DNA from: an uncultured virus (IMG/VR IMGVR_UViG_3300034815_000029)
Taxonomy: Duplodnaviria; Heunggongvirae; Uroviricota; Caudoviricetes
DNA: 64,000 nucleotides
Direction: 5' to 3' (one strand)
IMG/VR virus record: IMGVR_UViG_3300034815_000029
In this document: piece after piece, positions 1-38,286 of the stretch
How positions within the stretch are numbered: position 1 is the stretch's first letter
Layout: the number at the start of each line of letters is the position of its first letter
Translations under genes and position numbers: made by a program
Notes under the pieces: generated by a model
Told to the model about the DNA's origin: nothing
The model's database searches: none
What the model saw: only the letters and a program-made list of their open reading frames with translations

Positions 1-127
1 GAGCTATGTGCGGAGCATGACCGAATGGCTCATGCCCTGATGACGCTGCTCGGGGAAACCGAGGACAGCGACTACATGAGTGCGGCAGAACAGCGGGCGA
101 TGGCGCGGGATGCGCTGCCGCCTAACG
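1..127 (+). repeat. 127-bp exact direct repeat, copy 1 (3' part of cassette F)
   Basis: Identical to 35880-36006; diverges right after GCCTAACG. Confidence 0.97.
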
Positions 128-178
128 CTCTCAATGAGGGGCCGCCGAAGGCGGTCCCTCTCGATTGAGTGGTTGGCC
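120..178 (-). repeat. attC site 1 (59 bp)
   Basis: Minus strand reads GGCCAAC CACTC AAT[C]GAG[A]GGG[A]CCGCC TTCG GCGGCCCCTCATT GAGAGC GTTAGGC: R''/L''/L'/R' boxes with the canonical extrahelical bases. Confidence 0.9.
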
Positions 179-199
179 GGCAACGGAAAGGACGATGAC

Positions 200-691
200 A
201 TGAACGAACTGCAATACAACCGCTGGAAACAGATGAGCCTCGGCCTGGCGCGTACCTACACGAACCTGACGCCAGCGCGGAAGGCGAGGCTGCTCGACGA
301 GGTTGAGTGCTGCATCGACTGGGTAGTGTGCAACGGCCTGGAGACCGTGGCGGACTGGGACAGCGGCGTGCAGTACGGCAAGGGCTGGCGCGAGCGCTAC
401 GAGTCCGTGAGCGCACGGGTAGATACCTTCCTTTGGGACAACCGCTACAAGTTCGAGCGCGAGAACAAGCACGGCGTCGAGGTTGTGCGCGGGCGCTTCG
501 GAGACATGCTGTCAGCCTGCGTTCGCGCTGGTTTTGATGTGGCAGTGTCCCCTAGCGGAGGCGTGATCGGCTTCACGGTCGGCGACCTGCGCGACATCTT
601 CGACGGCTCGATACCGGATTGGGTGGCGTCGCACTTCGAGGACCCGGCGGCGGTGCTGGCTGCCGGCCGCGATGAGGGCGTGTGGCTTTGA
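200..691 (+). CDS. Hypothetical protein, cassette 1 (126-698)
   Basis: ATG at 200 after AAGGA; flanked by GTTGGCCG and CGGCCAAC. Confidence 0.75.
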   Translation: MNELQYNRWKQMSLGLARTYTNLTPARKARLLDEVECCIDWVVCNGLETVADWDSGVQYGKGWRERYESVSARVDTFLWDNRYKFERENKHGVEVVRGRFGDMLSACVRAGFDVAVSPSGGVIGFTVGDLRDIFDGSIPDWVASHFEDPAAVLAAGRDEGVWL

Positions 692-692
692 C

Positions 693-751
693 GGCCAACG
701 CAAAAAATGAGGGGCTTGCGCAGCAAGTCCCGCTCGATTGATGGGTTCGGC
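693..751 (-). repeat. attC site 2 (59 bp)
   Basis: GGCCAAC...AATGAGGGG...TCCCGCTCGATT...GTTCGGC imperfect palindrome. Confidence 0.9.
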
Positions 752-773
752 GGCACAGTTAAGCGGAGAGAAA

Positions 774-1040
774 ATGCGACCAACATTTACAGCAAAGAAC
801 ATGATTATTTTGGTAACAGTTCTGCCGATAAGGATAGCTGCTCTTGGTTTACTCTGGTTCATTTCTTGGATTGGCGAGTTGGCAGATGTTGCGGCAGATT
901 GGGTTAGCTACAAAATACCTGGCCTTGAATTTGTGAGAGAAACAGAGGCAGGACGGGAAGAAAGAATGAGGCGGATTGCTGGATTGAGAAAGACTTCGCA
1001 AGAGCGCATTGACGCTGAAATTGACATGATGCATCGGTGA
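774..1040 (+). CDS. Small membrane protein, cassette 2 (699-1047)
   Basis: GGAGA RBS, hydrophobic N-terminus; flanked by GTTCGGCG and CGCCGAAC. Confidence 0.7.
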   Translation: MRPTFTAKNMIILVTVLPIRIAALGLLWFISWIGELADVAADWVSYKIPGLEFVRETEAGREERMRRIAGLRKTSQERIDAEIDMMHR

Positions 1041-1047
1041 CGCCGAA

Positions 1048-1338
1048 CTTAAATTCTTTAAAGAAATGGGGCGTAGACCAGGCGCTGGTTATTCGCTCGA
1101 TAGAATAAATAATAATCTTGGTTACACCGCAGAAAATTGTAAGTGGGCAACCACCGCCGAGCAACAAAGAAATACCAGAACCACAAAGTTGACTTATGCA
1201 TCTGTTAACGCAATGAAGCTACGCAGAGAGGAAGGTGCAACATACAAACAAATTGCTGCCGAGTTTGGCGTTTCAAGAATGTGCGCCACTCACGCAATTA
1301 TCGGAAAAACATGGGCCAATCATGAAAAAACGGAATAA
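1048..1338 (+). pseudogene. N-terminally truncated HNH endonuclease with C-terminal HTH
   Basis: LKFFKEMGRRP..SLDRINNNLGY..ENCKWAT motif; the frame reaches the cassette crossover and no N-terminal half is present. Confidence 0.7.
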
Positions 1339-1801
1339 AAAGTACAAACCGCACCCGGTTTTATCATGGCTACACAATTCAGATCGCACAACGATTGAGA
1401 TTATGTCACGTGTCATGGTAAACAAATTGGTCAGCGGTACTTTTTCTGACATCGACGCCAACACCGTCGCCTACGAACTCAACATCACCCGGCGCCTCGC
1501 CGTGATCGGCGGGCACGAATCCGTCAGGCAAGCCGCCGACGAGTGCATGGCCGCCTACCTCGGCATCCGCGACCGCCAGATGAAAACCGGCAAGTGGGGC
1601 GCGAACGGGCAGGAATTCCAGACCTTCCGCCAGCACCTGGGCGGCTTGTCCGATTACTTCAGCCGCCAGCCCGTGCACCGCATCGAGTCGGCGCGGCAAT
1701 GGGTGCTTGCGATCAATCGGAAAATGCAGGAAGCCGGGGCGATGTCGGCGGATATTGGCGACGACATGAAGTTGGAAAACGTGGTGATGGTTGCGGCATG
1801 A
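1322..1801 (+). CDS. Phage hypothetical protein
   Basis: MKKRNKKYKP start, overlaps both neighbours. Confidence 0.7.
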   Translation: MKKRNKKYKPHPVLSWLHNSDRTTIEIMSRVMVNKLVSGTFSDIDANTVAYELNITRRLAVIGGHESVRQAADECMAAYLGIRDRQMKTGKWGANGQEFQTFRQHLGGLSDYFSRQPVHRIESARQWVLAINRKMQEAGAMSADIGDDMKLENVVMVAA

Positions 1802-2061
1802 CCACCCTGCTCCTCTTCGCCAGCAGCTTCCTCACCGTGTTCGCGCTCGGGTTCCAGCAGCAGAACGTCAGCGGCGGACACCATACCGCCGCCTTCGTCA
1901 CCAGCTTCCTGATCGGCACCGGCCAGCTCGGCATCCTCAAACTGGTGCCAAACACCGATGACCCGATGATGGTGCTGGCCTACCTCGCTGGCGGACCCGT
2001 CGCCATCGTCGCCAGCATGATCATCCACCCGAAAACCGTGGGAAGGAAGACCGCGCCGTGA
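1798..2061 (+). CDS. Small multi-TM phage membrane protein
   Basis: ATGA coupling, three hydrophobic segments. Confidence 0.7.
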   Translation: MTTLLLFASSFLTVFALGFQQQNVSGGHHTAAFVTSFLIGTGQLGILKLVPNTDDPMMVLAYLAGGPVAIVASMIIHPKTVGRKTAP

Positions 2062-2279
2062 GCATCTTCCTGGATTCCACAGAAATGCACGACCTGACCG
2101 GCTACGTGCGCCATGCCGATCAGCGCCGGTGGCTGACAGATCGCGGCTGGACATTCGAGCAGAACGCCAACGGACGCCCGATTGTGCTGCGATCCCACGC
2201 GGAATCCAGGATGGGTGGCGACACGGGGAAACAGGCGGAAAAACGCCCTAACTTTACTGCGATCAAGAAAGCAGCCTAA
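2058..2279 (+). CDS. DUF4224-like excisionase
   Basis: FL..EM.DLTGY....Q..WL...G......NGRP pattern directly upstream of the integrase. Confidence 0.8.
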   Translation: MSIFLDSTEMHDLTGYVRHADQRRWLTDRGWTFEQNANGRPIVLRSHAESRMGGDTGKQAEKRPNFTAIKKAA

Positions 2280-2282
2280 ACT

Positions 2283-3269: not shown

Positions 3270-3293
3270 TTGTAAAATAATTTTAAAAACGGG

Positions 3294-3322
3294 TTGACTA
3301 ATACGTTCAATGCGCGTATATT
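3294..3322 (+). promoter_or_regulatory. sigma70-type promoter
   Basis: TTGACT-17 bp-TATATT. Confidence 0.7.
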
Positions 3323-3381
3323 TAAAACCGTCAGCACAACGCATGACACCGCGCCTCGGGAACCAGGGGCTGGAGAAGAAA

Positions 3382-5489: not shown

Positions 5490-5504
5490 CGGTTATCCCT
5501 CCAA

Positions 5505-6127: not shown

Positions 6128-6142
6128 GTTTTCTCCTTTTTA

Positions 6143-6346: not shown

Positions 6347-6735
6347 TTGTTCCCGTCATCCATGAAAGTGGCCTGCCCGAAATTTGGGCCATCCATGCCA
6401 GCGGCAGAGCTTTCGTCGGTCTGAAAGCGGAGCAGAACCGCCAGCCTGCCGTTGCCCTTCCAGCCCGCCCCGCACTGAAAATATTTTTTAGTGAATGGCC
6501 GGATCTGAATCCCGATCCAGAAAGGCAGCCGCAACTGGAGGAATAAAACCCCGTTCATGAACAGGCTAGGGGGATCGCGGTAAATGACGCGCAGCAGATT
6601 AAAGCCGGGATAGATTAAATCGAAGAATCCGCATTGCAGGCTGATCAGGTGTACCGATCGCGCCTCCGGGATGGCGGTATGGTCGCCTAGCCAGTCGATT
6701 AATTTCCAGATTGGCGAACTTGCAAAGGGTCGCAT
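6343..6735 (-). CDS. Conserved hypothetical protein (homolog of 61368-61763)
   Basis: Shares WLGD.TAIPE, IYRDPPSLFMNG and ESSAAGMDGPN with the phage B copy. Confidence 0.85.
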   Translation of the reverse strand: MRPFASSPIWKLIDWLGDHTAIPEARSVHLISLQCGFFDLIYPGFNLLRVIYRDPPSLFMNGVLFLQLRLPFWIGIQIRPFTKKYFQCGAGWKGNGRLAVLLRFQTDESSAAGMDGPNFGQATFMDDGNK

Positions 6736-7595
6736 TACTGATCACCAAATACACTAAAACTGATTTGTGAAAAATCAGCGGCGACTACAGAGGAATTGTA
6801 CGTTTCAAGCCGGAATGTGCTGGCTGTCAATACCGTTGTCACACACGCAAAATAATTCCCACCAGGAATTACCGCATAGTTGGCAGATGACATTGCAGGG
6901 TTCAATGTGATTGTATATACACCTGGTCCACCATCGGTGATGGTTGCGCTTACACCAGACGAAATATCAAACGCAGGAGTGCCCGTACCGTTAAATCTTC
7001 CAAATGCCTTTGCAACCCCGGGATTGTGCTTTACCCCGCTCGGGGTGACGATGACAGCGGAGCTCGTTGCAGCCTCCATGTCGGCCTGAGATGCAAAGGC
7101 CATGGATTTCCCCACAGAAAAAAACGCCGTACCGTTGCAGATCAATATCCCGCTGTCGCCCGGCGCAACCGCCAGCGTCGCGGCGCCGTCTACCAGCTCG
7201 GTGGAATTCGGGTCGATGGTGATGGTGCCGCTGCCGGTGTTGCGGTAGAACACATGCCAGCCGTCGCCCAAAGTCGCGGCGGCGGTGAGGCCAAGCGGCC
7301 AGGTTCCGCTGCAATCGAGCAGTTTCGAGCGGTCTCCGGCGACCGCAGTATAGGCGCCAGTCTTGCTGGAGGTGGCAAATTTGAGTCGCAGCAGGTCGTT
7401 GTTTCCTGCTCCGGCCACGGTTTCGATTTCCACGCCGCCGCCGGTATCGAGCAGCGCCAGCGTGCCGAGTGCGGCCTTGAGCGCGTTGACCATGTCCACC
7501 ACGCCGGCCAGGTCGGTGAGCAGCGCCTGCTTGGGGTCGTCGGTGCTGGCGTCGCAGTTCGCTTTGGTGGCGTCAGCCGGGAGTGTCGTGCTCAT
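6735..7595 (-). CDS. Tail fibre protein
   Basis: Follows the J-like gene; ITIDPNSTELVDGA and ASQADMEAATS..VTP fibre motifs. Confidence 0.75.
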   Translation of the reverse strand: MSTTLPADATKANCDASTDDPKQALLTDLAGVVDMVNALKAALGTLALLDTGGGVEIETVAGAGNNDLLRLKFATSSKTGAYTAVAGDRSKLLDCSGTWPLGLTAAATLGDGWHVFYRNTGSGTITIDPNSTELVDGAATLAVAPGDSGILICNGTAFFSVGKSMAFASQADMEAATSSAVIVTPSGVKHNPGVAKAFGRFNGTGTPAFDISSGVSATITDGGPGVYTITLNPAMSSANYAVIPGGNYFACVTTVLTASTFRLETYNSSVVAADFSQISFSVFGDQ

Positions 7596-15521: not shown

Positions 15522-15814
15522 CAGGCTTTTTCCAGGAGCAGGCGGGTGAAGCCGTTGCCGTCCGGCTTGATCGCGGCGACGGTGTAGTTCACGGCGTTGA
15601 TGGTGATGGCGCTGCCTTCCACCAGGCTGGCCACGTCCGCGCTGGCGCAGGTGAATTCCGGCGCGCTGCCGGACACCATCCCGCCCGGGAATTCCGCATA
15701 GGCGTCGCCCAGCAGGCCGACGGCGCTGCCGCCGCTGAAAGTGGCGGTGTAATTGCCCAGCAGCGCCAGCGTGGCGGCGTTAAGCGTGGGCAGGATGTTG
15801 GCGAAAGCGGTCAT
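15521..15814 (-). CDS. Head-tail joining protein (FII-like)
   Basis: YTVAAIKPDGNGFTRLLL. Confidence 0.75.
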   Translation of the reverse strand: MTAFANILPTLNAATLALLGNYTATFSGGSAVGLLGDAYAEFPGGMVSGSAPEFTCASADVASLVEGSAITINAVNYTVAAIKPDGNGFTRLLLEKA

Positions 15815-15821
15815 GCAGACA

Positions 15822-15869
15822 GCATGGCTGCTGCGCGTCAACTACTTGGGCCGGATGGGTTGCGTTTTT
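15822..15869 (-). promoter_or_regulatory. Putative activator-dependent late promoter, copy 1
   Basis: 36-bp repeat (15834-15869 = 22697-22732) followed by CATGCT-N6-ATG. Confidence 0.65.
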
Positions 15870-22126: not shown

Positions 22127-22677
22127 CAGCCGAACCTCACCAGCACGCGACGCACGTCGGTGCCTTTTTGCGCCGCCGCCTCGCGCCGGACTTCAGTCAG
22201 CAGCCGGGAGCGCAGCGCCATCAGCGTGGCGGGGTTGTATTCCATGCTGCGATCGGCCAGCGCGGCCTTGACGATGTCGAGCTGCGAGGCCGTGGCCTTG
22301 GAGGTCAGCGCGGCCTCCACCGCATCCAGCATGGTGCGGGCGAAGCTGCGCGCGTCATAGACGGCGTCGGTCTCGAAGTTGTGCAGCACCCTGAGCCGGC
22401 CGGCATCCACCTGGACCCGCTCGCTCGCCGATTCCGCCAGCGCCACCCAGTCGTAGTCGCCGACCGTGTAGGCGGACGTGGTCGCCATGGCCACGGAAAC
22501 GGCATGGTTCACGCCGTCGGCGGCGGCGGCAATGGCAAATTTGGCGGTGGCGTTGCGGAAGTAATACGTCAGCACCCAGGTCGGGGCCGGGTAGTCAGCC
22601 AGATCCTCGCGGCGCCATTTCCAGGTGTCGCCAGCGCGCGCGGAGGTCGGTTCGGTAGTCGGGACGGTTGCGGTCAT
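22126..22677 (-). CDS. Head completion/joining protein
   Basis: AGDTWKW...; between terminase and portal. Confidence 0.65.
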   Translation of the reverse strand: MTATVPTTEPTSARAGDTWKWRREDLADYPAPTWVLTYYFRNATAKFAIAAAADGVNHAVSVAMATTSAYTVGDYDWVALAESASERVQVDAGRLRVLHNFETDAVYDARSFARTMLDAVEAALTSKATASQLDIVKAALADRSMEYNPATLMALRSRLLTEVRREAAAQKGTDVRRVLVRFG

Positions 22678-22684
22678 GTCGAAA

Positions 22685-22732
22685 GCATGGCCTCACCGCG
22701 TCAACTACTTGGGCCGGATGGGTTGCGTTTTT
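22685..22732 (-). promoter_or_regulatory. Putative activator-dependent late promoter, copy 2
   Basis: Same 36-bp element plus CATGCT-N6-ATG. Confidence 0.65.
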
Positions 22733-22761
22733 AGCAACTCCGGAATAGGGGCTATTTTAAG

Positions 22762-23517
22762 TTAGCCGTCAAAGCATCCGCACGGTATTTCGACCGCGCC
22801 CCTAAACATATCCATCTGTGCATCGTCGTACCTCACTAGGTCGGCCCACGCATACGAGCGGCCAAGACCTTTCACGCTGGTTAGTTTCGCGCCTGCTTCC
22901 ATCGCCAGCGCCCGCTGAATCAAATCCGGGTGCTGGCGCTTCAGTTCCAAAATCTCATGCGGCTTGCTGCTCGGGCAAAAGAAGCAGGCGCTTTTCCCCG
23001 GTTGCGGCAGTCCTGCGCGCCGGATCGCTTCCACACATTCATCGCGTCCCCAATCCCACTCAATCAACGGGTAGCGCGTTTCCTCGTACTTCGCTCGGTG
23101 CGCCTCGCCTGCATCAATGCCGACCCAAAACCACGGCGCGGCTATTCCCTGCGCTTTGAGCCACCGCTTCTGCGGCCTGATCTTGTAGTGGTCGCTGCAA
23201 CTCTTAAAGCCATACGCAATTCCAGGCAGTGCGCCGCGTGTAAGGCAGTCGGCTTCAAGGCTTACCGCTTCCGCTACAGTTACGATCCGAGGAAAACCAA
23301 CCCCTTCGCACCAATCGCTTACCGCGTCCTTGTGGCGGTAGGTTTCCGGCCTCTCGCCTCCGGTATCAGCGAACAAAATCAAGTCAGGTCGCTCGCCGCG
23401 TTCGTGCATGCCTATCAGCATGGCCGTGCTGTTCGTACCAGCTCCGTAGCTCACCACAATAGTCGGCGCTGGCAGTACGGCGGCGTTACTCTCAGTTTCT
23501 TGCAAGTTGTTCTCCAA
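22762..23517 (-). CDS. PAPS-reductase-like (PP-loop, Cys-rich) protein, solitary cassette K (22762-23575)
   Basis: SYGAGTNS, FADTGGE, KSACFFCP, CGCFDG; stop codon inside the GTTAGCC core; start codon uncertain. Confidence 0.8.
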   Translation of the reverse strand: MENNLQETESNAAVLPAPTIVVSYGAGTNSTAMLIGMHERGERPDLILFADTGGERPETYRHKDAVSDWCEGVGFPRIVTVAEAVSLEADCLTRGALPGIAYGFKSCSDHYKIRPQKRWLKAQGIAAPWFWVGIDAGEAHRAKYEETRYPLIEWDWGRDECVEAIRRAGLPQPGKSACFFCPSSKPHEILELKRQHPDLIQRALAMEAGAKLTSVKGLGRSYAWADLVRYDDAQMDMFRGAVEIPCGCFDG

Positions 23518-23521
23518 TGCC

Positions 23522-23581
23522 GGCTAACAAGTCATTCCACCGGACGGCCTTCGGCCGCGCGGTGAATTCCGAGCGTTATCG
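23522..23581 (+). repeat. attC site K (60 bp)
   Basis: GGCTAAC AAGTC ATT[C]CACCG...CGGTGAAT TCCGAGC GTTATCG; R'' complements GTTAGCCG at 22761. Confidence 0.88.
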
Positions 23582-23842
23582 GCGCCGGGTGATCTTGTGC
23601 ACGTACTGCCGGCTGACCCCGAAGCGTTCCACCACCACGGCGGTCGGCAACTTCTTGGCCGCCTCGACGATTTCGCGCTTCTTGCCGGTGTCCGGCGCCG
23701 GGATGTAGACCCGCTCGCCCGGCAGGCTGCGCCGGATGGTCTGCTCCAGCTCGCGCGCGCACTGCTCGCCGAAACTCACCGCCGGATGCCGGGCGCGCAG
23801 GAAATTGAGGATCAGGTCGATCTGTTCGTTCAGCGTCGCCAT
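23576..23842 (-). CDS. Mor/C-like transcription activator
   Basis: GERVYIP then C-terminal HTH (RFGVSRQYVHKI). Confidence 0.75.
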   Translation of the reverse strand: MATLNEQIDLILNFLRARHPAVSFGEQCARELEQTIRRSLPGERVYIPAPDTGKKREIVEAAKKLPTAVVVERFGVSRQYVHKITRRR

Positions 23843-23843
23843 C

Positions 23844-25829
23844 CTACCTCCTCCTCACGATGCCGCGCGGGCCGGGTTTTTGTTTTACTGCTGGCGGTGG
23901 TGGAGGGATATTTGTTACATCGAACAGGTCGCCGACCACAGGCTGGAAACGGGTCTCCAGATCGCTCCAGTATTTCGCGCTTTTTTTCGATAATTCAAAA
24001 TAGGTCTCCAGCCACACGGCGTAAACGGTGCAGTCCCAGGCTTCGACACGCTTCCTGATCGCCGTCCAGGTGGACTCCTCACCGCGCACGGTGCGGCGGG
24101 TGGTGCGGGCTTCGCCGGTGAATTGCCTGAAGAATTCGTCGCTGAGTTCGTTGCTGAAATGCATGTACCCGGGACCGGGACGGGTGATTTGCAGGCGCCC
24201 GTAGATCAGGTCTTTGGCGTGGTTGGTGCCGACCCACCACAGCACCAGTCCGTTTTTGCGCAGCCTGCCCTTCCAGTCGATGTCCACTTTGCTGGCGCCG
24301 TCGCGGATGTGTTTTTCACGCCCGGACCGTCCGCCAATGGCGAACACTTTGCGGCGGCTGTGCTTGGCGCAGAAATTGTAAACGGCGTGGGTGTTGTGGC
24401 CGCGAGTATCGATGGCCGTGCCGGATATGCGCAGGCGCTGTCCGCTGGCATGGTTGAATTCTGTCTCGAAGATGAATTCTTCCAGGTCTTGCCAGACTTC
24501 GTCCTCGTCCGGGTTGCCGAAGAAGATGCGGTGGGCGATGGCCCATTTCTCGCAGCCGCGCCCGTATCCCCATACGACGCACTCCAGACGGTTGGGCTGG
24601 GTGTCTACCCCGGCCAGCAACAGCACGGCTCCCATCGGGACGCGCTCCAGCGGGTAGGGTTCGGCGCGGGCGCGGAGTTCGTTTTCGTCCGACTTCTCGA
24701 AGGCTTCTGCCCAGTATTCGCCGAGGGTGGTGTTCCAGAATGCCTGGAGTTTTTCTTTCTTGCCCTCTCCGCCTTCGCGGTAGGCGGCGATAAAGTCGCG
24801 GGCAATGCTCACCCAGGAGACGTTCGGGCTGTAGGCGCTCCAGGTGTGGAAGGCGATGCGCGCCGGAGGGCGGACAAATTGTCCGGTGGCGTCCCTGAAT
24901 ATCCCGGAAGTGTCGCAGGTGGTGCCATCTTCGGACTGGTAGTGGCCCTGGTCGCAAATGGCCAGGTATTGTGCCTGCTCGATCAGCGCACCGCAGTGCG
25001 GGCACAGATGGCGGACCGTCTCCGGGTTGTCGTCTGTCCACTTGAATCCATGGGGCTCGTCCTTGCCGCCCCAGGTTAGCGGATGAAACTCGCCGCATTC
25101 CGGGCAGGGGATGTGCGGCTGCATGAACAGGTCCGCATCGCGCTCGCGCTTTTCGATGTTGGAGAAGCCCTTGAGCTTCGGTGTGCTGCCGATCACCAGC
25201 TTGGGGAAGGTGGCGCCCTCGATGCGCTTTGCCGCGAGCGTTCCGGGGTCTCCCTCCTTTTCGATGTTGCTGTCGAAGGCGTCGTATTCGTCCAGGTAGC
25301 CCGTATCGGCGCTGATGCGGCGGTAATTCTTGGCCGCCTTGCCGCCCTTCAGGTGGGCCATCGATCCGAGGAACTTCTTGGCCTGGAGCGTGTTGTCCTT
25401 GTCGCGCTTGAGGTAGGCAGGGAAAACGCCCTCCATCACCGCTACGTCGCGCAGCATAGGGTCGAGTTCGGTCTTGACAAACTCGTCGCGGTCGTCGTCG
25501 GTAGGCTGCCAAAGGACCTGATTCCGGCGCTTATGCTGGGCAAAGTAACCCATTGCCGCCAGAATGATCTTGGTATATCCGACCCGCGCTGATTTTCTCC
25601 AGATCACCTCGCGGATGTCGTCGTTGCTGATGCAGGCCATGATGGCGCGCTGGAACCACCAGGGCGTCCAGGACTGCTCGACGTAGGATGACTCAGCCGA
25701 TAGATAAAAATGCTTGCACGCCCACTCGTCCAGGCTCATCGGTTCAGGCACACCGAAAGCGGATAGCCCTTTCGCCAGGTGCAGCTGCATGGCAGGCAGA
25801 ATGAATCGGCTGTGCTCGCTCAGGTCCAT
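23844..25829 (-). CDS. Terminase large subunit, lambda gpA family
   Basis: KSARVGYTK Walker A, LDEYD, CPECGE, AGVDTQ. Confidence 0.95.
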   Translation of the reverse strand: MDLSEHSRFILPAMQLHLAKGLSAFGVPEPMSLDEWACKHFYLSAESSYVEQSWTPWWFQRAIMACISNDDIREVIWRKSARVGYTKIILAAMGYFAQHKRRNQVLWQPTDDDRDEFVKTELDPMLRDVAVMEGVFPAYLKRDKDNTLQAKKFLGSMAHLKGGKAAKNYRRISADTGYLDEYDAFDSNIEKEGDPGTLAAKRIEGATFPKLVIGSTPKLKGFSNIEKRERDADLFMQPHIPCPECGEFHPLTWGGKDEPHGFKWTDDNPETVRHLCPHCGALIEQAQYLAICDQGHYQSEDGTTCDTSGIFRDATGQFVRPPARIAFHTWSAYSPNVSWVSIARDFIAAYREGGEGKKEKLQAFWNTTLGEYWAEAFEKSDENELRARAEPYPLERVPMGAVLLLAGVDTQPNRLECVVWGYGRGCEKWAIAHRIFFGNPDEDEVWQDLEEFIFETEFNHASGQRLRISGTAIDTRGHNTHAVYNFCAKHSRRKVFAIGGRSGREKHIRDGASKVDIDWKGRLRKNGLVLWWVGTNHAKDLIYGRLQITRPGPGYMHFSNELSDEFFRQFTGEARTTRRTVRGEESTWTAIRKRVEAWDCTVYAVWLETYFELSKKSAKYWSDLETRFQPVVGDLFDVTNIPPPPPAVKQKPGPRGIVRRR

Positions 25830-30137: not shown

Positions 30138-30407
30138 TCATGCCGCAGCCCGTTGATTTGGGTTTTCGCCAAAAACATCCGAGCGCAGGTCATAGCGGGT
30201 TACTTGTCCGCCAGTCGCGTCCTCGATAGCACGGCAGTGCTCTGCGGGCGGCATTGGAGTCTTGGTGGTGTTCAGCCAGTTCCAGACGTGGCCCTGGGCA
30301 ACGCGCACTTCGCGCCCATTCGCCTGGTGCCATTCACGGATGGCGGTCGCCAATGCGACTTGACCTCCGACGAGTTCGATTGCTTTTTGGAGTGGGGTAA
30401 TCATCAT
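30138..30407 (-). CDS. Cro/YdaS-like regulator
   Basis: GGQVALA...AIEDATGGQVTRYDLRSDVFG. Confidence 0.85.
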   Translation of the reverse strand: MMITPLQKAIELVGGQVALATAIREWHQANGREVRVAQGHVWNWLNTTKTPMPPAEHCRAIEDATGGQVTRYDLRSDVFGENPNQRAAA

Positions 30408-30409
30408 GG

Positions 30410-30492
30410 AAACAAATTACCATCATCGTAGTAACGATGTCAACCATCATTGTTGTTTTACACAATACAAGCACGGTTGTATTGTTCAATCC
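30410..30492. promoter_or_regulatory. Divergent cro/cI operator region
   Basis: ACCATCATCGT and ACCATCATTGT near-palindromes; related ACAATCATCGT at ~31898. Confidence 0.6.
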
Positions 30493-30843
30493 ATGAATCT
30501 TGCAGAGCGGATACAGACAGCCAGAAAGCATGCCGCCCTTACACAGGGAGGATTAGCCGAAAAAGCGGGGATTTCTCAGCAGGCCATATCTCGCCTTGAA
30601 ACTGGCGAACAAAAAACCACCACCGATATTGTGCAGATCGCCGTTGCCTGCGGAGTCCGTCCTGAGTGGCTGGCAATGGAATCTGGCGATATGGTGGATG
30701 GGTTGTACGTGCATGACGAAAAGCTCAAGCAGTTGCTCAAAATCGCTCAGGAGTTGCCAGAGTACGGAAAAGACAAGGCGATACGGGAAGTTACTGAGAT
30801 TGTTGAATTCATCGAACAGGCAGCCAAGGCGGCGAAGCAATAA
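30493..30843 (+). CDS. CI-like XRE repressor without peptidase domain
   Basis: LAERIQTARK..LTQ.LAEKAGISQQAISRLE. Confidence 0.85.
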   Translation: MNLAERIQTARKHAALTQGGLAEKAGISQQAISRLETGEQKTTTDIVQIAVACGVRPEWLAMESGDMVDGLYVHDEKLKQLLKIAQELPEYGKDKAIREVTEIVEFIEQAAKAAKQ

Positions 30844-31779: not shown

Positions 31780-31809
31780 TCTTCATATCTAGCATTTCAC
31801 TCTCCCCAT

Positions 31810-31834: not shown

Positions 31835-31885
31835 GCCCGCGATTTGCGGGTTTTTTCATTGTAGCAAATAAAACAATGATAATGG

Positions 31886-31915
31886 TTGACACATAAACAA
31901 TCATCGTTGTATATT
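31886..31915 (+). promoter_or_regulatory. PL-like early promoter upstream of the cassette array
   Basis: TTGACA-18 bp-TATATT with an operator-like motif in the spacer. Confidence 0.7.
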
Positions 31916-33346: not shown

Positions 33347-33383
33347 TGCAACCGGCCGCCGGGAGCCGTAATCCCGGCACTTA

Positions 33384-33461
33384 TTTGAACGTAGAGCTAA
33401 CCGGCGGCGCTTTAGCGCCGTCCAGCGACCGAAGGGAGCGAGGTTGAGCGCCTTGTTAGGG
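33384..33461 (-). repeat. attC A (78 bp)
   Basis: Minus strand CCCTAAC AAGGC GCT[C]AACC...GGTTAGC TCTAC GTTCAAA. Confidence 0.88.
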
Positions 33462-33474
33462 GCCAACTGCACGG

Positions 33475-34173
33475 ATGATTGAACTGCTACACACCGACTG
33501 CATGACTTACATGGCGGCGCTGCCAGATGCGGCCTTTGACTTGGCGATTGTTGACCCGCCATACGGGCGCGGCGAGGACGGCGGCACAAACCGATGCCAC
33601 GGCGTGAAGCAGAAGAACGGCGCGGTGCTGCGGTGCCTCGATGGCGGCTACGCGAAGAAGGCTTGGGACAAGGAACCGCCACCGCCTGAGTATTTCGCGG
33701 AACTGCGCAGGGTGGCAAAGCACCAGATTGTTTGGGGTGCGAACTACATGCCGGTGAAACTGCAAGGCGGGGCAATTGTTTGGGACAAGGTGAATGACGG
33801 AGCCGACCAGAGCGGCGCGGAAATAGCCTACTGCAGCTTGAACGAGCGCGTGGACGTGGTGCGCTATATGTGGCGCGGGATGATGCAGGGAGAGGCGGTA
33901 GGCAGCCAACGCCAGCAGGGAAACAAGGCGCTGAACGAGCGCCGGATTCACCCGACACAGAAGCCGGTTAAGTTGTACGAATGGTTGCTGCAGCAGTACG
34001 CGCAGCCGGGAATGAAGGTTTTAGATACCCACCTTGGCAGCGGGAGCGCGGCGATTGCAGCGCACTACTACGGGGTGGATTTTGTGGGGTGCGAGATAGA
34101 TGCCGACTACTGGCTAGCAGCCAAGGAACGGTTTGAGGCTGAAACCCGGCAGATGGCGTTACTTGGCCCCTAA
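33475..34173 (+). CDS. N4C/N6A DNA methyltransferase, cassette A
   Basis: DPPY, HPTQKP, LDTHLGSGS. Confidence 0.9.
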   Translation: MIELLHTDCMTYMAALPDAAFDLAIVDPPYGRGEDGGTNRCHGVKQKNGAVLRCLDGGYAKKAWDKEPPPPEYFAELRRVAKHQIVWGANYMPVKLQGGAIVWDKVNDGADQSGAEIAYCSLNERVDVVRYMWRGMMQGEAVGSQRQQGNKALNERRIHPTQKPVKLYEWLLQQYAQPGMKVLDTHLGSGSAAIAAHYYGVDFVGCEIDADYWLAAKERFEAETRQMALLGP

Positions 34174-34229
34174 CGCATAGGTAAGGGGACTGAGCAACGC
34201 GAAGTTCCCGCTTGACCGCTGAGTTAGGC
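34168..34229 (-). repeat. attC B (62 bp)
   Basis: CCCTAAC...GGTAAGGGGA...TCCCGCTTGACC...GTTAGGC. Confidence 0.9.
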
Positions 34230-34253
34230 GGAATTTTGAAAAAGGAGATGGTC

Positions 34254-34427
34254 GTGGCAAAACTAATAACGTTGAACATTGAGCGATTTGTGGTTTGCAG
34301 CACTGGCGAGGAAATGGAAATACCAGAACCGGCAGACAGTCTTGAAGCCGCGATAAAACTTCGAGACGATAAGCAGGCTGGTGATGAATATGAGACATGG
34401 GAAATTGTGGCGGAAGTTGCCGCCTAA
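34254..34427 (+). CDS. Hypothetical protein, cassette B
   Basis: AAGGAG RBS; stop codon in GCCTAAC. Confidence 0.65.
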   Translation: MAKLITLNIERFVVCSTGEEMEIPEPADSLEAAIKLRDDKQAGDEYETWEIVAEVAA

Positions 34428-34512
34428 CGGCGAAGCTAAGGGGCGCGAGCGATGACAAAACAACGAAGTGAGCCGGATGTTCGAGCGTCACGCCTTGAGC
34501 GCCTTGTTGGGC
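34422..34512 (-). repeat. attC C (91 bp)
   Basis: GCCTAAC...GCTAAGG...CCTTGAGC...GTTGGGC. Confidence 0.82.
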
Positions 34513-34676
34513 GATTGTGGGCATTAGTCTGGAGGCGATGGATGACTGGCCCAGGTGGGCAACCTCGCCGTGTGGTGCGCGTGAAGGGGTGGCGCACTGC
34601 GATTATTGAGAGCGATTGGGAAATGCGGCAGACCATTACGCCATGTTTCTCGATTTTTGGATGGCGGTTTGATTGA
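34452..34676 (+). CDS. Hypothetical protein, cassette C (starts inside the attC loop)
   Basis: ATG at 34452 lies within attC C. Confidence 0.55.
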   Translation: MTKQRSEPDVRASRLERLVGRLWALVWRRWMTGPGGQPRRVVRVKGWRTAIIESDWEMRQTITPCFSIFGWRFD

Positions 34677-34680
34677 TGAC

Positions 34681-34747
34681 GCCCAACGCCTGATTTCACC
34701 GGCCTGAGCGGCTTTTTGCTCAGGTCCGGTGGAATGATTGGTTGGCC
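34681..34747 (-). repeat. attC D (67 bp)
   Basis: GCCCAAC...TTCACCGGCCTGAGC...GCTCAGGTCCGGTGGAA...GTTGGCC. Confidence 0.9.
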
Positions 34748-34775
34748 GGCTGGTAGCTACGAAGTGAGGAATTAA

Positions 34776-35483
34776 ATGGCTGAAAAAGTAACGATAGGGA
34801 CCGCTGAATTGTGGCACGGAGACTGCAGGGAAGTTCTGCCGTTGCTGCCAGACTGCGACCTGATTTTGACAGACCCGCCATACGGCCTGAACGAAGCGGC
34901 CGGAAAGAACCGAAGCCGTGGAAGCGCTGCAGGCGCGAACAAGTGGAAAGGCTCGCGCAACACGACAGGTGTTGGCGTTGCCTCGACGGACTTTGGCGAG
35001 CCGAGCGAATGGGATAGTGCGCCGCCCCCGACGTGGGTGATTGAGATGATGCGCGCCAAGGGGAAATGGCAAGTGATGTTCGGCGGCAACTATTACCCGC
35101 TGCCGCCGGCCAGGTGCTGGCTTGTGTGGGACAAGGACAACGGGGAAACCGATTTCGCGGACTGCGAACTTGCGTGGACGAACTTGCCGAAAGCGGTGCG
35201 CCGGCTGCGCTGGATGTGGAACGGCATGCTGCAGCAGGACATGGCGAACAAGGAAGAACGACAGCACCCGACGCAGAAGCCGGTGCCGGTGATGCGGTGG
35301 GCTTTGCTTCAAGTTCCCGACGCCGAGACGGTTTGCGACCCATTCATGGGCAGCGGAACAACAGGGGTGGCGTGTTGGATGGAAGGGCGGCGGTTCGTCG
35401 GCATTGAGCGCGAACGCCGGTATTTCGATATTGCTTGCGAGCGGATTGCCCGCGCACAGGCACAAGAGCGGCTGTTCGCATGA
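34776..35483 (+). CDS. N4C/N6A DNA methyltransferase, cassette D
   Basis: TDPPY, HPTQKP, DPFMGSGTTG. Confidence 0.92.
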   Translation: MAEKVTIGTAELWHGDCREVLPLLPDCDLILTDPPYGLNEAAGKNRSRGSAAGANKWKGSRNTTGVGVASTDFGEPSEWDSAPPPTWVIEMMRAKGKWQVMFGGNYYPLPPARCWLVWDKDNGETDFADCELAWTNLPKAVRRLRWMWNGMLQQDMANKEERQHPTQKPVPVMRWALLQVPDAETVCDPFMGSGTTGVACWMEGRRFVGIERERRYFDIACERIARAQAQERLFA

Positions 35484-35487
35484 AGAC

Positions 35488-35556
35488 GGCCAACGCAGAG
35501 GTAAGCCGATGACAAAAGCGCAGCTTTTGGCAGTCGGCTTGACCGCCGGGTTAGCC
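35488..35556 (-). repeat. attC E (69 bp)
   Basis: GGCCAAC...GGTAAGCCGA...TCGGCTTGACC...GTTAGCC. Confidence 0.9.
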
Positions 35557-35736
35557 GGGGGCCGAGCCGCACACGAACAATGGGAGCGCACCCGAGGCGA
35601 TGAAAACGAGTGCGATGCAGAGAAACGGCTACACGAAGAGGTTTCAGAAAGTGGCAACACGATACCGAGTGAGTGGTGGCATGGATGGCTCGAACGCTCC
35701 GATGAGTGGCGAGACGAAATCGAACATGCCGGCTAA
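35509..35736 (+). CDS. Hypothetical protein, cassette E (starts inside attC)
   Basis: GAGGT RBS and ATG within attC E; stop codon in GGCTAAC. Confidence 0.55.
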   Translation: MTKAQLLAVGLTAGLAGGRAAHEQWERTRGDENECDAEKRLHEEVSESGNTIPSEWWHGWLERSDEWRDEIEHAG

Positions 35737-35790
35737 CGATTAGCTTAAGGGGCGGCTGTTAAGCCGTCCCGCTTGAAGCGCCGGTTAGGC
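35731..35790 (-). repeat. attC F (60 bp)
   Basis: GGCTAAC...CTTAAGGGGCGGC...GCCGTCCCGCTTGAAG...GTTAGGC. Confidence 0.9.
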
Positions 35791-35804
35791 GCAGAAAGGT
35801 GAAT

Positions 35805-36047
35805 ATGACAGCAAGGCACGAAATAGGGAAGTGGCTGAATGAACAGCCGAACCGCGAGATTGACCGGCGGGTATTGGCCGAGCTATGTGCGGAGCATGAC
35901 CGAATGGCTCATGCCCTGATGACGCTGCTCGGGGAAACCGAGGACAGCGACTACATGAGTGCGGCAGAACAGCGGGCGATGGCGCGGGATGCGCTGCCGC
36001 CTAACGTCGGCGGTAACCGGCTTGCGCCCGCACAGGAGCAACGATGA
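35805..36047 (+). CDS. Hypothetical protein, cassette F (reads into the next attC)
   Basis: AAGGTG RBS; its 3' part is also present at 1-127. Confidence 0.7.
   Translation: MTARHEIGKWLNEQPNREIDRRVLAELCAEHDRMAHALMTLLGETEDSDYMSAAEQRAMARDALPPNVGGNRLAPAQEQR
35880..36006 (+). repeat. 127-bp exact direct repeat, copy 2
   Basis: Identical to 1-127. Confidence 0.97.
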
Positions 36048-36092
36048 AGAACACCCTTGCCGGCGCAAGTCCGGTTGACCAACCAGTTAGGG
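35999..36092 (-). repeat. attC G (94 bp)
   Basis: GCCTAAC...GGTAACCGGCTTGCGCC...GGCGCAAGTCCGGTTGACC...GTTAGGG. Confidence 0.88.
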
Positions 36093-36349
36093 CGCTGCCT
36101 GAGCCGTTGCCGTGCCCGTTTTGTGGGCGACAGCCGGAGCTAGACAACCCGGACACTCTTTACCCGAACGGCACCGGGTGGAAGCCTTGGCGAGGCTTCC
36201 GTTCTTATGTAGGGTTCCGCGAAGTGCCGAAGGAACAATGGTGCTACGGGATGCACTGCTGCGAGTGCTGCGGTGGATGCGGGGCAGAGATTCACGGCGA
36301 TAGTGCAGCCGAGGCGGTAGAGAAGTGGAACCGGCGCCCTAACGCATGA
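36044..36349 (+). CDS. Lar-family restriction alleviation protein, cassette G
   Basis: LPCPFCG...C..CGA...AVEKWNRR; AGGAG RBS and ATG in the attC loop. Confidence 0.8.
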   Translation: MKNTLAGASPVDQPVRALPEPLPCPFCGRQPELDNPDTLYPNGTGWKPWRGFRSYVGFREVPKEQWCYGMHCCECCGGCGAEIHGDSAAEAVEKWNRRPNA

Positions 36350-36401
36350 AATGAGGGGCAGCGCCGCTTTTGCGCTGTCCCGCTCGATTGACGGGTTGTG
36401 C
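36337..36401 (-). repeat. attC H (65 bp)
   Basis: CCCTAAC...AATGAGGGGCAGCGC...GCGCTGTCCCGCTCGATT...GTTGTGC. Confidence 0.9.
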
Positions 36402-36427
36402 GTCAAAACGTAACTACGGAGTGAGGA

Positions 36428-37432
36428 ATGAATGAGTTGGAGCTTTTCGCAGGCGCTGGTGGCGGAATACTCGGGTCAATGTTGCTCGGGCACAGAACCG
36501 TATGCGCCGTTGAATTCGATGCATATGCCAGATCAGTTTTATTGGCCAGACAAGCCGACGGAACATTCCCGACTTTCCCGGTTTGGGACGACGTGCGCAC
36601 CTTTGACGGAACACCGTGGCGCGGAATTGTTGACGTGGTTTCGGGAGGTTTCCCGTGCCAGGATTTGTCGGTTGCGGGGAAAGGGGCAGGACTTGATGGA
36701 AAGCGCAGCGGATTGTGGCGAGAAATGGCGCGGATCATTGGCGAAGTACGACCCCGCTACGCATTCATTGAAAACAGCCCAGCTCTCATTACTAGAGGAC
36801 TTGACCGGGTGCTCTGTGATCTTGCCGCGCTCGGGTTTGATGCGCGATGGGGTGTGCTCGGAGCTTCCGATGTTGGCGCTCCGCACAAGCGCGAGAGAAT
36901 CTGGATATTGGGCTACTCCCGCAGCTTCGGACGGGACACGGGGAGGAAAAATCACCGACAAGATGACGGGGCAATCATTGGTTCAGATGGTCAACACGCC
37001 AGCGAAGTGGCCGACACCAACGGCGAGCGACCACACGGGGCCGGGATATGCCGCGCAGGGCGGGTTGAATTTGAGGACGGCGGTTGCTCTATGGCCAACC
37101 CCGACAGTCTGCGGGAACTACAACCGCAATGGAGCGAGTGCATCGAGCGGGGATGGGTTGGCAACTGCTGTTCGGACGTGGCCAACAGCAACAGCATACA
37201 AGGGCTGGAGTCAGAAACACAACCGAGCGAACACGGACGACCGGCTGGATTATTCGGTGGAACGCGAGAATTTCAGCATTGGCCAGCAGACCCCGCCGAT
37301 GCGCCTGAATCCAAATTGGGTCGAGTGGTTGATGGGTTGGCCAATCGGGCAAACAGAATTAAAGCCATTGGAAACGGGCAGGTTCCGAGAGTTCGAGCAG
37401 CAGCATGGCGGATTTTGACGCACAACGGCTGA
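36428..37432 (+). CDS. C5 cytosine DNA methyltransferase (alpha polypeptide), cassette H
   Basis: LFAGAGG, GGFPCQD, IENS, HKRERIW, IGNGQVP. Confidence 0.92.
   Translation: MNELELFAGAGGGILGSMLLGHRTVCAVEFDAYARSVLLARQADGTFPTFPVWDDVRTFDGTPWRGIVDVVSGGFPCQDLSVAGKGAGLDGKRSGLWREMARIIGEVRPRYAFIENSPALITRGLDRVLCDLAALGFDARWGVLGASDVGAPHKRERIWILGYSRSFGRDTGRKNHRQDDGAIIGSDGQHASEVADTNGERPHGAGICRAGRVEFEDGGCSMANPDSLRELQPQWSECIERGWVGNCCSDVANSNSIQGLESETQPSEHGRPAGLFGGTREFQHWPADPADAPESKLGRVVDGLANRANRIKAIGNGQVPRVRAAAWRILTHNG
36432..37418 (+). CDS. Overlapping +1-frame ORF, putative beta polypeptide of the MTase
   Basis: Open along the whole gene; WPTP repeats; motif IX-like LNPNWVEWLMGWP. Confidence 0.65.
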   Translation: MSWSFSQALVAEYSGQCCSGTEPYAPLNSMHMPDQFYWPDKPTEHSRLSRFGTTCAPLTEHRGAELLTWFREVSRARICRLRGKGQDLMESAADCGEKWRGSLAKYDPATHSLKTAQLSLLEDLTGCSVILPRSGLMRDGVCSELPMLALRTSARESGYWATPAASDGTRGGKITDKMTGQSLVQMVNTPAKWPTPTASDHTGPGYAAQGGLNLRTAVALWPTPTVCGNYNRNGASASSGDGLATAVRTWPTATAYKGWSQKHNRANTDDRLDYSVERENFSIGQQTPPMRLNPNWVEWLMGWPIGQTELKPLETGRFREFEQQHGGF

Positions 37433-37504
37433 GGTAACCCGGCCGCGCCGCTTTTGGCGCGGTCCGGTGAGCGAAGCGAACGAAGGTTGACCGATGGGTT
37501 AGAA
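37420..37504 (-). repeat. attC I (85 bp)
   Basis: GCACAAC...GGTAACC...GGTTGACC...GTTAGAA. Confidence 0.85.
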
Positions 37505-37525
37505 GGCATTTTGATCGGAGCGAAC

Positions 37526-37864
37526 ATGAACATAGCAGAAGCGGCGGAGTGGCTTGAGCAAATGAGCAGCGAGAAGGCCGCACAGATTGTGCTTGAGCAC
37601 TACCACCTGAAACAGCACTTGTGCGCCCAACGCCTCGGCGTGCCGACCGGCTGCGACGATTGGGTTGCGCGCGCCATTGAACGCGGCGAACACCTGCGGG
37701 AATGCGAAATGCAACTGCGGCTGCTGCTCGACAAGGGGAGCGCGATGCTGGCGGAAGTGAAGTGGAAGACGCGCCACACGGAATGCACCAACTGCCGAGG
37801 CACCGGCCGCACTGGCGAAAATGCTTGCTGCATCTGTCGCGGGACGGGCGCTCGTGCCTTCTAA
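37526..37864 (+). CDS. Protein with DnaJ-type CxxCxGxG zinc finger, cassette I
   Basis: CTNCRGTG...CCICRGTG. Confidence 0.75.
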   Translation: MNIAEAAEWLEQMSSEKAAQIVLEHYHLKQHLCAQRLGVPTGCDDWVARAIERGEHLRECEMQLRLLLDKGSAMLAEVKWKTRHTECTNCRGTGRTGENACCICRGTGARAF

Positions 37865-37924
37865 CGCTGGCGTAACCGGCGCGGAGCCGAAGGCGGAGCG
37901 TCCGCGTTGACGCAAATGTTAGGC
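37859..37924 (-). repeat. attC J (66 bp)
   Basis: TTCTAAC...GCGTAAC...GTTGACGC...GTTAGGC. Confidence 0.85.
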
Positions 37925-37935
37925 ATGGAGTGACG

Positions 37936-38286
37936 ATGAAAGTAAAAGATTGGCACGAACCCAAAGACCAAATGTGCAACTTGGGGCGGCATAGTTGGAG
38001 CGTGCCGCGCCTGTTTGAGCTTGCGCGAGAACTCCCGGTGATGGACGTTCCGCTCAACCACCTGAGCCTGTACTACACCTACGAGAAGCTGACGCTTCGG
38101 GAAATGGTGATGCACATGCGTGCGGTCAATGACGCCGACCTAGAGAAGCCCATCATTTTGGACGAGGACGGGGAACTGATGGACGGACGGCATAGGCTGA
38201 TGAAGGCGATGCTGCTAGGAAACGAAACGATTAAGGCGGTACGGTTCGACGAAAACCCGTCGCCGTGCCAAGTGCGAGATGCCTAA
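37936..38286 (+). CDS. ParB/Srx N-terminal-like protein, cassette J
   Basis: PIILDEDGELMDGRHRL. Confidence 0.78.
   Translation: MKVKDWHEPKDQMCNLGRHSWSVPRLFELARELPVMDVPLNHLSLYYTYEKLTLREMVMHMRAVNDADLEKPIILDEDGELMDGRHRLMKAMLLGNETIKAVRFDENPSPCQVRDA

Follow-up and report, generated by a model that had tools for sequence, protein, structure and literature searches.

Thirteen short gene units in a 64,000-nt stretch of DNA from an uncultured tailed virus (IMG/VR record IMGVR_UViG_3300034815_000029; "the window" below means this whole stretch) are bounded by core sequences that are complementary across each gene, which raises the question whether they are integron cassettes and, if so, to which of the two sites flanking it each gene belongs. 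Our analysis makes it likely that the window holds three integron-type insertions without an integrase, namely two clusters of attC sites lacking an integrase (CALINs) and one single cassette, in which the genes are reversed relative to their attC sites and the integron integrase, IntI, crossed over at AA|C. The cassettes lie in three places: array 1 (1-1048) contains a partial copy of cassette F followed by cassettes 1 and 2, cassette K stands by itself (22761-23590), and array 2 (33395-38287) contains cassettes A to J. The core complementarity, the attC identity, the strand, the crossover position, the polarity of the arrays and the position of intI in relatives were all computed, and they are reported below in this order.

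A first, sequence-only reading had listed a left and a right core for every cassette and described their pairing as perfect across each gene and imperfect within each attC of an array. All 13 core pairs were found in their places, at 172-699 for cassette 1, 745-1048 for cassette 2, 22761-23528 for K, and spanning 33455-38287 for A to J. With lengths anchored on GTT/AAC, of which 3 bp are fixed, perfect pairing extends over 8 bp in cassettes 1, 2 and K, and over 12, 9, 8, 8, 9, 8, 10, 14, 11 and 9 bp in A to J, giving a mean of 9.5 bp over the 12 cassettes of arrays 1 and 2. Pairing within the in-array attC sites is indeed imperfect (11 pairings, mean 4.09 bp, range 3-6). The reading had named equally long complementarity of randomly re-paired cores as the outcome that would speak against it; the 132 non-cognate pairings had a mean of 4.05 bp and a maximum of 9 bp, and among 100,000 permutations of the 12 cassettes none reached the observed sum of 114, the largest being 93. 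The complementarity is thus confirmed to lie far beyond chance. Among viral relatives, cognate pairing of at least 7 bp was seen in 59 of the 90 intervals between consecutive attC matches, against a non-cognate mean of 4.46 bp; 18 of the 90 showed only the fixed 3 bp, probably because an intervening attC was overlooked. When the cassettes were rebuilt in silico as circles, as had been proposed, the attC fold was stabilised in 12 of 12 (mean from about -18 to about -23 kcal/mol). Exact core complementarity is a textbook feature of integron cassettes, and cognate cores are the specific product of an IntI-type single-strand exchange. The cores are, as the first reading had it, the footprint of site-specific insertion of circular integron cassettes.

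The attC sites themselves required a dedicated model. A regular expression with strict cores found no match in the window, and a looser core scan picked up the sites among many GC-rich false hairpins; when read and folded one by one, the 13 sites are imperfect palindromes between RYYYAAC and GTTRRRY cores. MAFFT alignments of all 13 or of nine sites were misaligned and RNAalifold returned no structure, hence a covariance model, R1, was built from four well-aligned window sites on the minus strand with a hand-written structure. Of the 12 sites in arrays 1 and 2, R1 recovered 10, all of them on the minus strand and with scores from 81 down to 21 bits; the K site was matched on the plus strand. 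R1 also recognised sites well outside the window: both attC sites of the class 1 integron of plasmid CP026281 (IntI1, aadB, catB3, qacEdelta1-sul1), with 23.8 bits for aadB and 35.2 bits for catB3 on the coding strand and 9.2 bits on the other strand; three sites in the complete integron of Shewanella phage M16-3 and two in Tetrasphaera phage TJE1, all on the coding strand. The TJE1 attC sites were recombined into attI1 by IntI1, according to the main text of PMC9892861. R1 found nothing in a Vibrio phage integron (L083), so the model is narrow. Among relatives of the window, AAC stood at the expected position in 152 of 158 R1 matches and GTT in 136 of 158, and one attC of L040, antisense to the genes of its own locus, aligns over 69 nt with 84% identity to the aadB attC, which is sense and occurs in at least 5000 plasmids. 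The hairpins of the window are integron attC sites. They are listed here with their cassettes, which are cut at the AA|C crossover; for each attC the top strand is given.

1-125, plus strand: 3' part of a second copy of cassette F; window positions 1-127 are 100% identical to 35880-36006, and the rest lies beyond the window start
120-178, top strand minus: attC of cassette 1; R1 81 bits on the minus and 26 bits on the plus strand; folded
126-698, plus strand: cassette 1, its attC and gene 200-691; cores GTTGGCCG / CGGCCAAC
693-751, top strand minus: attC of cassette 2; R1 75 bits on the minus strand
699-1047, plus strand: cassette 2, gene 774-1040; array 1 ends with AAC|TTAAA at 1048|1049
1066-1338: truncated HNH endonuclease gene abutting the end of array 1; covers only positions 58-127 of the 196 of the profile
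22762-23575: cassette K, PAPS-reductase-like gene 22762-23517 (minus strand) and attC 23522-23590 (top strand plus); R1 24.5 bits on the plus strand
33395-33461, top strand minus: attC of cassette A, folded; far (oldest) end of array 2
33401-34173, plus strand: cassette A, N6/N4 DNA methyltransferase 33475-34173 (PF01555, phrog_23224); cores of 12 bp
34174-34427, plus strand: cassette B, attC 34166-34229 and small open reading frame (ORF) 34248-34427; R1 37.5 bits on the minus strand
34428-34686, plus strand: cassette C, attC 34422-34512 and ORF 34452-34676; R1 31.5 bits on the minus strand
34687-35493, plus strand: cassette D, attC 34681-34747 and N6/N4 DNA methyltransferase 34776-35483 (PF01555, phrog_67); R1 32.5 bits on the minus strand
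35494-35736, plus strand: cassette E, attC 35488-35556 and ORF 35509-35736; R1 29.2 bits on the minus strand
35737-36004, plus strand: cassette F, attC 35731-35790 and ORF from 35805; R1 79 bits on the minus strand
36005-36342, plus strand: cassette G, attC 35999-36092 and Lar-like restriction-alleviation gene 36044-36349 (PF14354, phrog_599); R1 25.5 bits on the minus strand
36343-37425, plus strand: cassette H, attC 36337-36401 and C-5 cytosine DNA methyltransferase 36428-37432 (PF00145); R1 68 bits on the minus strand; cores of 14 bp
37426-37864, plus strand: cassette I, attC 37420-37504, folded and without an R1 match at E<=10, and ORF 37526-37864
37865-38286, plus strand: cassette J, attC 37859-37924 and ORF 37936-38286 (phrog_17560); R1 21 bits on the minus strand

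The strand of these matches bears on which site belongs to which gene. The control arrays are matched by R1 on the coding strand, immediately past the 3' end of each gene. Its matches in the window are on the strand antisense to the cassette genes, with a clear preference (81 vs 26, 79 vs 11 and 32.5 vs 11 bits on the minus and plus strands, the four sites matched on both strands scoring 26 to 10 bits on the plus strand). Cassette K mirrors this layout, with the gene on the minus strand and the R1 match on the plus strand. The extrahelical bases of an attC select the strand that recombines; in all ten single-stem attC sites of the window there are more unpaired bases in the 5' than in the 3' arm of the gene-antisense strand, and the single-base bulges, which are located on this 5' arm in 10 of 10, align with those of the aadB and catB3 attC sites. 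The recombining strand of an attC is its "bottom" strand (as described in PMC5027507). Since the attC top strand is antisense to the genes, the coding strand of the window cassettes is the bottom, recombining strand, and since the canonical crossover lies at G|TT of the top strand, it falls here at AA|C of what had been called the right core. This arrangement, with the gene on the strand opposite the attC top strand and the attC on its upstream side, holds for all 13 cassettes. The crossover is thus at AA|C, and each attC belongs to the gene downstream of it. One part of the sequence-only reading does not hold in this light: the circles were said to open at G|TT of the plus-strand left core, which is contradicted by the strand, the array ends, the neighbours of cassette F and the position of intI. 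An opening there would give each gene the attC that follows it, while the evidence pairs it with the upstream one. Only the reversed arrangement gives one attC to each cassette in 13 of 13 cases.

The neighbours of cassette F locate the junctions to the base. The two copies of F in the window, in array 1 and array 2, diverge one base after AAC and then differ wholly. In other sediment samples A to F are contiguous in contigs X2 and X4 and cassette 2 then follows F (the joint leads from 36006 to 36377 and on into the beginning of cassette 2), in X3 it is the array-1 attC that follows F, and all the X variants break at 36006; the X5 piece spans 34854-36006, the X3 pieces are short, and the parts of array 2 not covered by X3-X5 are uninformative. 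F therefore has three different right-hand neighbours, which all part right after AACG, and it keeps no downstream attC. Pairs of viral relatives behave likewise: the 2820 nt that L071 and L072 share at 99.75% identity end 2 nt past an AAC; L006 and L013 have a methylase in common (96% identical), which closes one array and has an attC behind it in the other; and L031 and L070 also have a gene in common. In the latter two pairs the downstream attC of the shared gene differs or is missing, and identity ends at AAC plus 1. As to recombination of the sites by IntI, such variants with breaks at the cores are indirect evidence.

The ends of the arrays have the same polarity. In the direction of the genes, all three places begin with a full attC and finish with a bare AAC|TTAAA (1048, 38287 and, on the minus strand, 22761; in array 2 the break is at 38287|38288), so that on the attC top strand all three ends read TTTAAG|TT. 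The orders ...F-1-2 in array 1, ...F-G-H-I-J in array 2 and ...F-2 in X2 and X4 have their far cassettes in common and differ at the AAC|TTAAA end, as expected if new cassettes enter there. The window arrays are CALINs by the absence of intI, and relatives indicate where an integrase gene would lie. In a metagenome-assembled genome (MAG) of Burkholderiales (L112), three reversed cassettes end at GGCCTAAC|TTGAATTC, and a full intI (427 bits; a complete IntI was scored as TIGR02249 above its cut-off of 265 bits) starts 45 nt past the array end on the same strand as the genes, so that it diverges from the attC top strand in the canonical manner. Pieces of intI are placed and oriented likewise in two viral loci. 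The open frames concerned, of 120 aa in L016 and 80 aa in L074, have integron integrase as their best family and match only its N-terminal (6-73) or C-terminal (271-315) part; the piece in L074 lies just before an excisionase and a phage integrase.

Cassette K offers a view of a target site. It stands alone in the late operon, its gene matches phrog_424 (E 1e-37), and it is inserted at the stop codon of a small late-operon gene (23576-23842). Four related phages have the flanking genes adjacent and read ATAAC-TTTAC there, the flanks being only about 70% alike and the site thus approximate. The target reads AAG|TTAT on the attC top strand, which is of the GWT type, and C|TT on the gene strand.

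A separate observation concerns an rTAGrC box that lies 5 nt past the terminal AAC at array 2 (38288-38300), at K (22749-22760) and in about six relatives, among them L006, L017, L044, L071 and L077. It is absent at array 1 and in L112, whose spacer is unlike the others. The box is a possible integrase-binding half-site of an attI-like site, and it hints at a dedicated site of this kind rather than random GWT sites.

To see how far the reversed layout extends we turned to homologues of methylase D (40-73% identical) in 80 IMG/VR loci, which with MW202573 make 81 viral sources. R1 gave 162 matches (E up to 0.1) in 53 of the 81, and in 158 of these the methylase homologue lies on the opposite strand; the remaining four fall in one stretch of L070 that has been inverted along with its copy of the methylase. 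The reversed layout occurs in 52 of the 80 IMG/VR loci and in MW202573 (2067-2134 and 2279-2342, antisense to annotated genes). In bacterial contigs, mostly from Burkholderiales with Xanthomonadales and other MAGs, all 45 matches were antisense, in 15 of 20 loci. That the genes do lie on the strand assumed is supported by PHROG matches (E up to 1e-5) in bounded cassettes, which were found for 24 of 58 gene-sense ORFs vs 1 of 57 opposite-strand ORFs, the single one being weak and located under a strong methylase. Fourteen of the 24 fall outside the query family (C5 methylase, PAPS reductase, RNase H, RNA ligase, DHH phosphoesterase and others). The closest methylase homologues (L003 and L004, 72-73% identical) lie outside arrays. 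The chromosomal integrons of related host MAGs have the canonical intI-attC geometry in six cases, and their cassettes look mostly sense with few reversed, as judged by ORF length only.

Some of these loci deserve mention on their own account. L135 (3559-4673) contains a reversed ORF of 365 aa, L118 has a partial match to methylase D in the same array region, and L134 and L139 are also among the MAG integrons with mostly sense and occasional reversed cassettes; the reversed MAG cassettes are a possible link between the cassette pools of hosts and phages. In L016 and L021 the methylase bodies are 90-93% identical, and the 5' leader with the left core and the 3' tail with the right core differ as a pair; the cores of L032 are non-cognate. 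Homologous exchange between cassettes seems to add to site-specific shuffling.

How do other explanations fare with these data? One holds that these are ordinary cassettes, in which the attC comes after the gene it belongs to and the circle opened at G|TT of the plus-strand left core. The core complementarity is equally expected for such cassettes, and the folding of rebuilt circles does not separate the two models, as circles with the downstream attC body fold as well as those with the upstream one (-22.9 vs -22.8 kcal/mol); stop codons fall in an xTAAC core for seven of 13 genes (A, B, E, I, J, K and the small gene before K), as they do in many classical cassettes. Yet R1 matches the gene-antisense strand here and the coding strand in three true integrons or validated arrays, F lacks a constant downstream attC in its two window copies and in three other samples, J, 2 and K would be left with no attC and an orphan attC would stand before A, the intI of relatives would be on the wrong side, and the K target reads C|TT on the gene strand and G|TT on the other. 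We consider the ordinary layout very improbable. Less probable still, to the point of being hardly tenable, is that the hairpins are intergenic terminators or repetitive extragenic palindromic (REP)-like repeats of a phage operon with incidental core matches. The sites are intergenic and fold stably, and one terminator-like hairpin does lie just before array 2 (33358-33378), but none of the ten attC sites of array 2 is terminator-like on the plus strand and no attC is followed by a T run, in line with the earlier argument that they are not just terminators; a terminator scan gave 13 sites in 9 kb vs 10.6 expected from shuffles. Chance pairing is excluded by the permutation test, the sites look like those of class 1 integrons in both sequence and structure, and it is precisely at the cores that samples differ in gene content.

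The strongest of the competing accounts, which we nevertheless regard as unlikely, accepts attC-like sites and has them moved by a phage or host Xer-like recombinase, or by homologous recombination or replication slippage between hairpins. It draws on the lack of intI in the window and of a full IntI in all 50 related viral records, on the mosaic methylases of L016 and L021 with common bodies and different ends, and on an indel between L040 and L072 that is flanked by a 23-nt repeat extending into the attC, both of which resemble homologous exchange. Movement without IntI fits poorly with breakpoints that, in several independent pairs, coincide to the base with the AAC core, and with cognate cores of 8-14 bp, the product of an IntI-type single-strand exchange, and IntI or fragments of it adjoin related arrays in canonical geometry and are frequent in the likely host order.

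Several results also weigh against reversed cassettes inserted by IntI, and they are to be set beside the evidence above. The sites used to build R1 come from the window itself, its E-values are approximate, and it misses two of the 12 sites of arrays 1 and 2 (that upstream of A and that between H and I). The site upstream of A belongs to a different attC subfamily; it has no R1 match at E<=10 and is 97% identical to an attC of L078. This is one of several near-identical attC bodies that have different genes on both sides (the other being the F-G site compared with L056 and L112), so that co-inheritance of attC and gene was not directly seen; a test of attC-gene linkage had three qualifying cassette pairs, of which one was informative. 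The joint in X2 and X4 rests on 21 matching letters, and the runs with the arrays are assembled contigs from sediment, wastewater and aquatic metagenomes, not reads. In the GC-rich relatives, strand counts by longest ORF are ambiguous (25 gene-sense, 6 opposite, 27 unclear). Finally, intI is absent from the window, none of the 33 open frames of at least 40 aa beside the array ends matching it, and the end of array 1 at the truncated HNH gene may be a secondary site or a deletion and not attI. As to that gene, its 5' part was apparently removed by array 1 or by a deletion.

Taken with these points, the reversed insertions remain the likely explanation, and they would have arisen as follows. Each cassette consists of one attC and then one promoterless gene antisense to the attC top strand; it would once have been circular and have been inserted by IntI at G|TT of the gene-antisense strand, inside the operons of a lambda-like prophage. 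Insertion as a circle by IntI crossover would explain the exactly complementary ends. New cassettes would enter at the AAC|TTAAA end, at an attI- or attG-like site reading TTTAAG|TT on the top strand, which would explain why related arrays share their far cassettes and differ at this end. Because the window has no intI, IntI would be supplied in trans from the host. The genes run with the phage operon and would be reached by read-through from phage promoters.

A broader proposal, which we put forward tentatively and think rather doubtful, is that of a distinct and widespread "reverse-polarity" integron lineage specialised for temperate phages. In such a lineage the attC would precede the gene, an early promoter of the phage itself would read through the array in the direction of attI and intI, and host chromosomal integrons would hold the same cassettes silently as a shared pool. 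Some attC loops would supply the ribosome-binding site, the ATG and the first ~16 codons, prophage induction would turn on anti-restriction cargo and integrase together, and the recombining strand would be the non-template strand exposed by transcription.

The source of the integrase was sought in the relatives. No IntI above the cut-off was found in the 50 related viral records, and the ten records that are at least 90% complete gave no match at all. Other tyrosine-recombinase matches, of 33 and 28 bits and in long open frames, occur in L088 and L089. A full IntI is present in 10 of 11 bacterial genomes with related cassettes and in 61 of 151 genomes of one order (a tally that includes the unpublished genome G088); the comparison is rough, as the 11 genomes span several orders. 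It is most likely that a host IntI acts in trans on the prophage arrays.

The surroundings of the arrays are those of a phage. A profile search of the window proteins found lambda-like modules across the 64,000 nt, and the main neighbouring features are these:

Window start, plus strand: run of genes, the last of which are DUF4224 and a phage integrase (2283-3269)
Minus strand: tail, head, portal and Nu1 genes, DnaB- and DnaD-like replication genes, CII- and Cro-like genes
23844-25829, minus strand: large terminase
30406-30843, plus strand: repressor-like helix-turn-helix gene, followed by small plus-strand genes up to 38286
31886-31915, plus strand: promoter-like site matching 11 of 12 consensus positions; two terminator-like hairpins precede it

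The site at 31886-31915 is a candidate promoter of the plus-strand operon that runs into array 2, and the cassette genes are probably expressed by read-through from phage promoters. In three cassettes, C, E and G, the loop of the cassette's own attC contains an in-frame ATG for the ORF together with a Shine-Dalgarno-like sequence. By Pfam and PHROG, A and D are N6/N4 methylases, H is a C5 methylase (full length, matching phrog_363 over residues 1-329), G is Lar-like and K is PAPS-reductase-like; I has one weak PHROG match and J matches phrog_17560, both families of unknown function, and no Pfam or PHROG match was found for cassettes 1, 2, B, C, E and F. Judging from the family names, the cargo may protect phage DNA against host restriction.

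Two coding features cross the cassette boundaries. ORF F has no stop in its own cassette: it passes its own AAC and ends at 36047 inside the attC of G, where its stop forms an ATGA overlap with the start codon of G in the attC loop, and the array 1 copy (1-166) would stop in another attC. Since ORF F stops in the next attC, its C-terminal tail is set by the neighbouring cassette. The G-type attC (35999-36092; L112 4216-4320) contains a ribosome-binding site, an ATG and ~16 codons, the peptide starting M..LAGASPVDQPVR, and heads two different proteins in the window and in L112; a copy in L056 (9890-9987) is 95% identical and is followed by other DNA.

Other features of the window touch the arrays less closely. 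Searches with Rfam (gathering threshold) and a tRNA scan gave no match in the window. One genome, G001, is the same phage as ~11.8-31.8 kb of the window, and the arrays lie outside it; a search of the phage collection gave scattered methylase matches and nothing closely related to the array. Directly after array 2 there are genes for ParA (38652-39395) and a TrfA-type replication initiator (40618-41496), with no integrase there; the prophage is possibly a phage-plasmid, or else it may border on a plasmid-like element. These genes are followed by an ORF of 4626 aa (42023-55903, minus strand) with LPD38, N6 methylase/Eco57I and helicase domains, a "polyvalent" giant protein of a type known from conjugative and phage elements, and by a second set of phage structural genes (SU10-type adaptor, SNase-like; 55961-64000). 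Between 61378-62116 and the tail region at 6353-7094, two stretches of 240 and 116 nt are 73% identical, and the 64-kb window contains at least three phage-like modules. A 63-nt element occurs at 15807-15869 and 22670-22732 (89% identical), just upstream of two late-operon genes; it takes in the start codons of both and may be a shared translation or regulatory signal.

Phage CALINs with methyltransferases have been published (PMC9892861), and two of those phages, TJE1 and MW202573, were recovered in our searches. As described in the main text of that paper, its phage arrays, from both temperate and virulent phages, are like those of the window in having attC-bounded cassettes, no intI and frequent orphan DNA methyltransferase cargo; the arrays of TJE1 and PH101 are structured there like typical bacterial arrays, whereas the window genes are antisense to attC. 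In the passages of PMC9892861 that were consulted, we found no mention of a gene reversal. IntI has also been described to insert cassettes at GWT (attG) sites outside integrons, giving rise to single cassettes, small CALINs and single attC sites lacking an integrase (SALINs), in a preprint (10.1101/2022.09.11.507474). Cassette K corresponds to such an insertion: it stands alone at a GWT-type target (...AAG|TTAT, where a phage gene has its stop codon) with no integron nearby, and four relatives lack it at this place. The preprint deals with bacterial chromosomes and classical cassettes, whereas in the window one site has grown to ten cassettes.

Classical integrons have in common with the window and its relatives the attC architecture, the cognate cores, growth at the attI/intI end and an intI divergent from the attC top strand, as seen in L112 and in six host chromosomal integrons. 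They differ in that their genes are sense with the attC downstream, whereas the window genes are antisense and read towards attI/intI, so that a Pc-type promoter could not express them; the window also lacks the intI of complete classical integrons. In the "inverted integrase" integrons (e.g., of Treponema), intI lies upstream, flipped relative to attI and attC, and the genes are sense to attC. This group is similar in that intI and the cassette genes point in the same direction, and L112 is unlike it because its intI is canonical relative to the attC strand and its genes are flipped. In the literature searched we found no description of a uniform gene reversal or of a complete integron so laid out, although one may exist.

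Whole reversed arrays in phage operons thus recur in dozens of viral contigs and in MAGs of Burkholderiales and Xanthomonadales, and one complete integron (L112) has the reversed layout. Annotation pipelines that assume a gene before its attC would pair such a gene with the wrong site, and the rule of expression from Pc would not hold for part of the cassette pool. The layout predicts that the coding strand is the recombining strand. For the phages, it would mean that the integron cassettes of their hosts could form a pool from which anti-restriction genes are taken up and to which they are returned.

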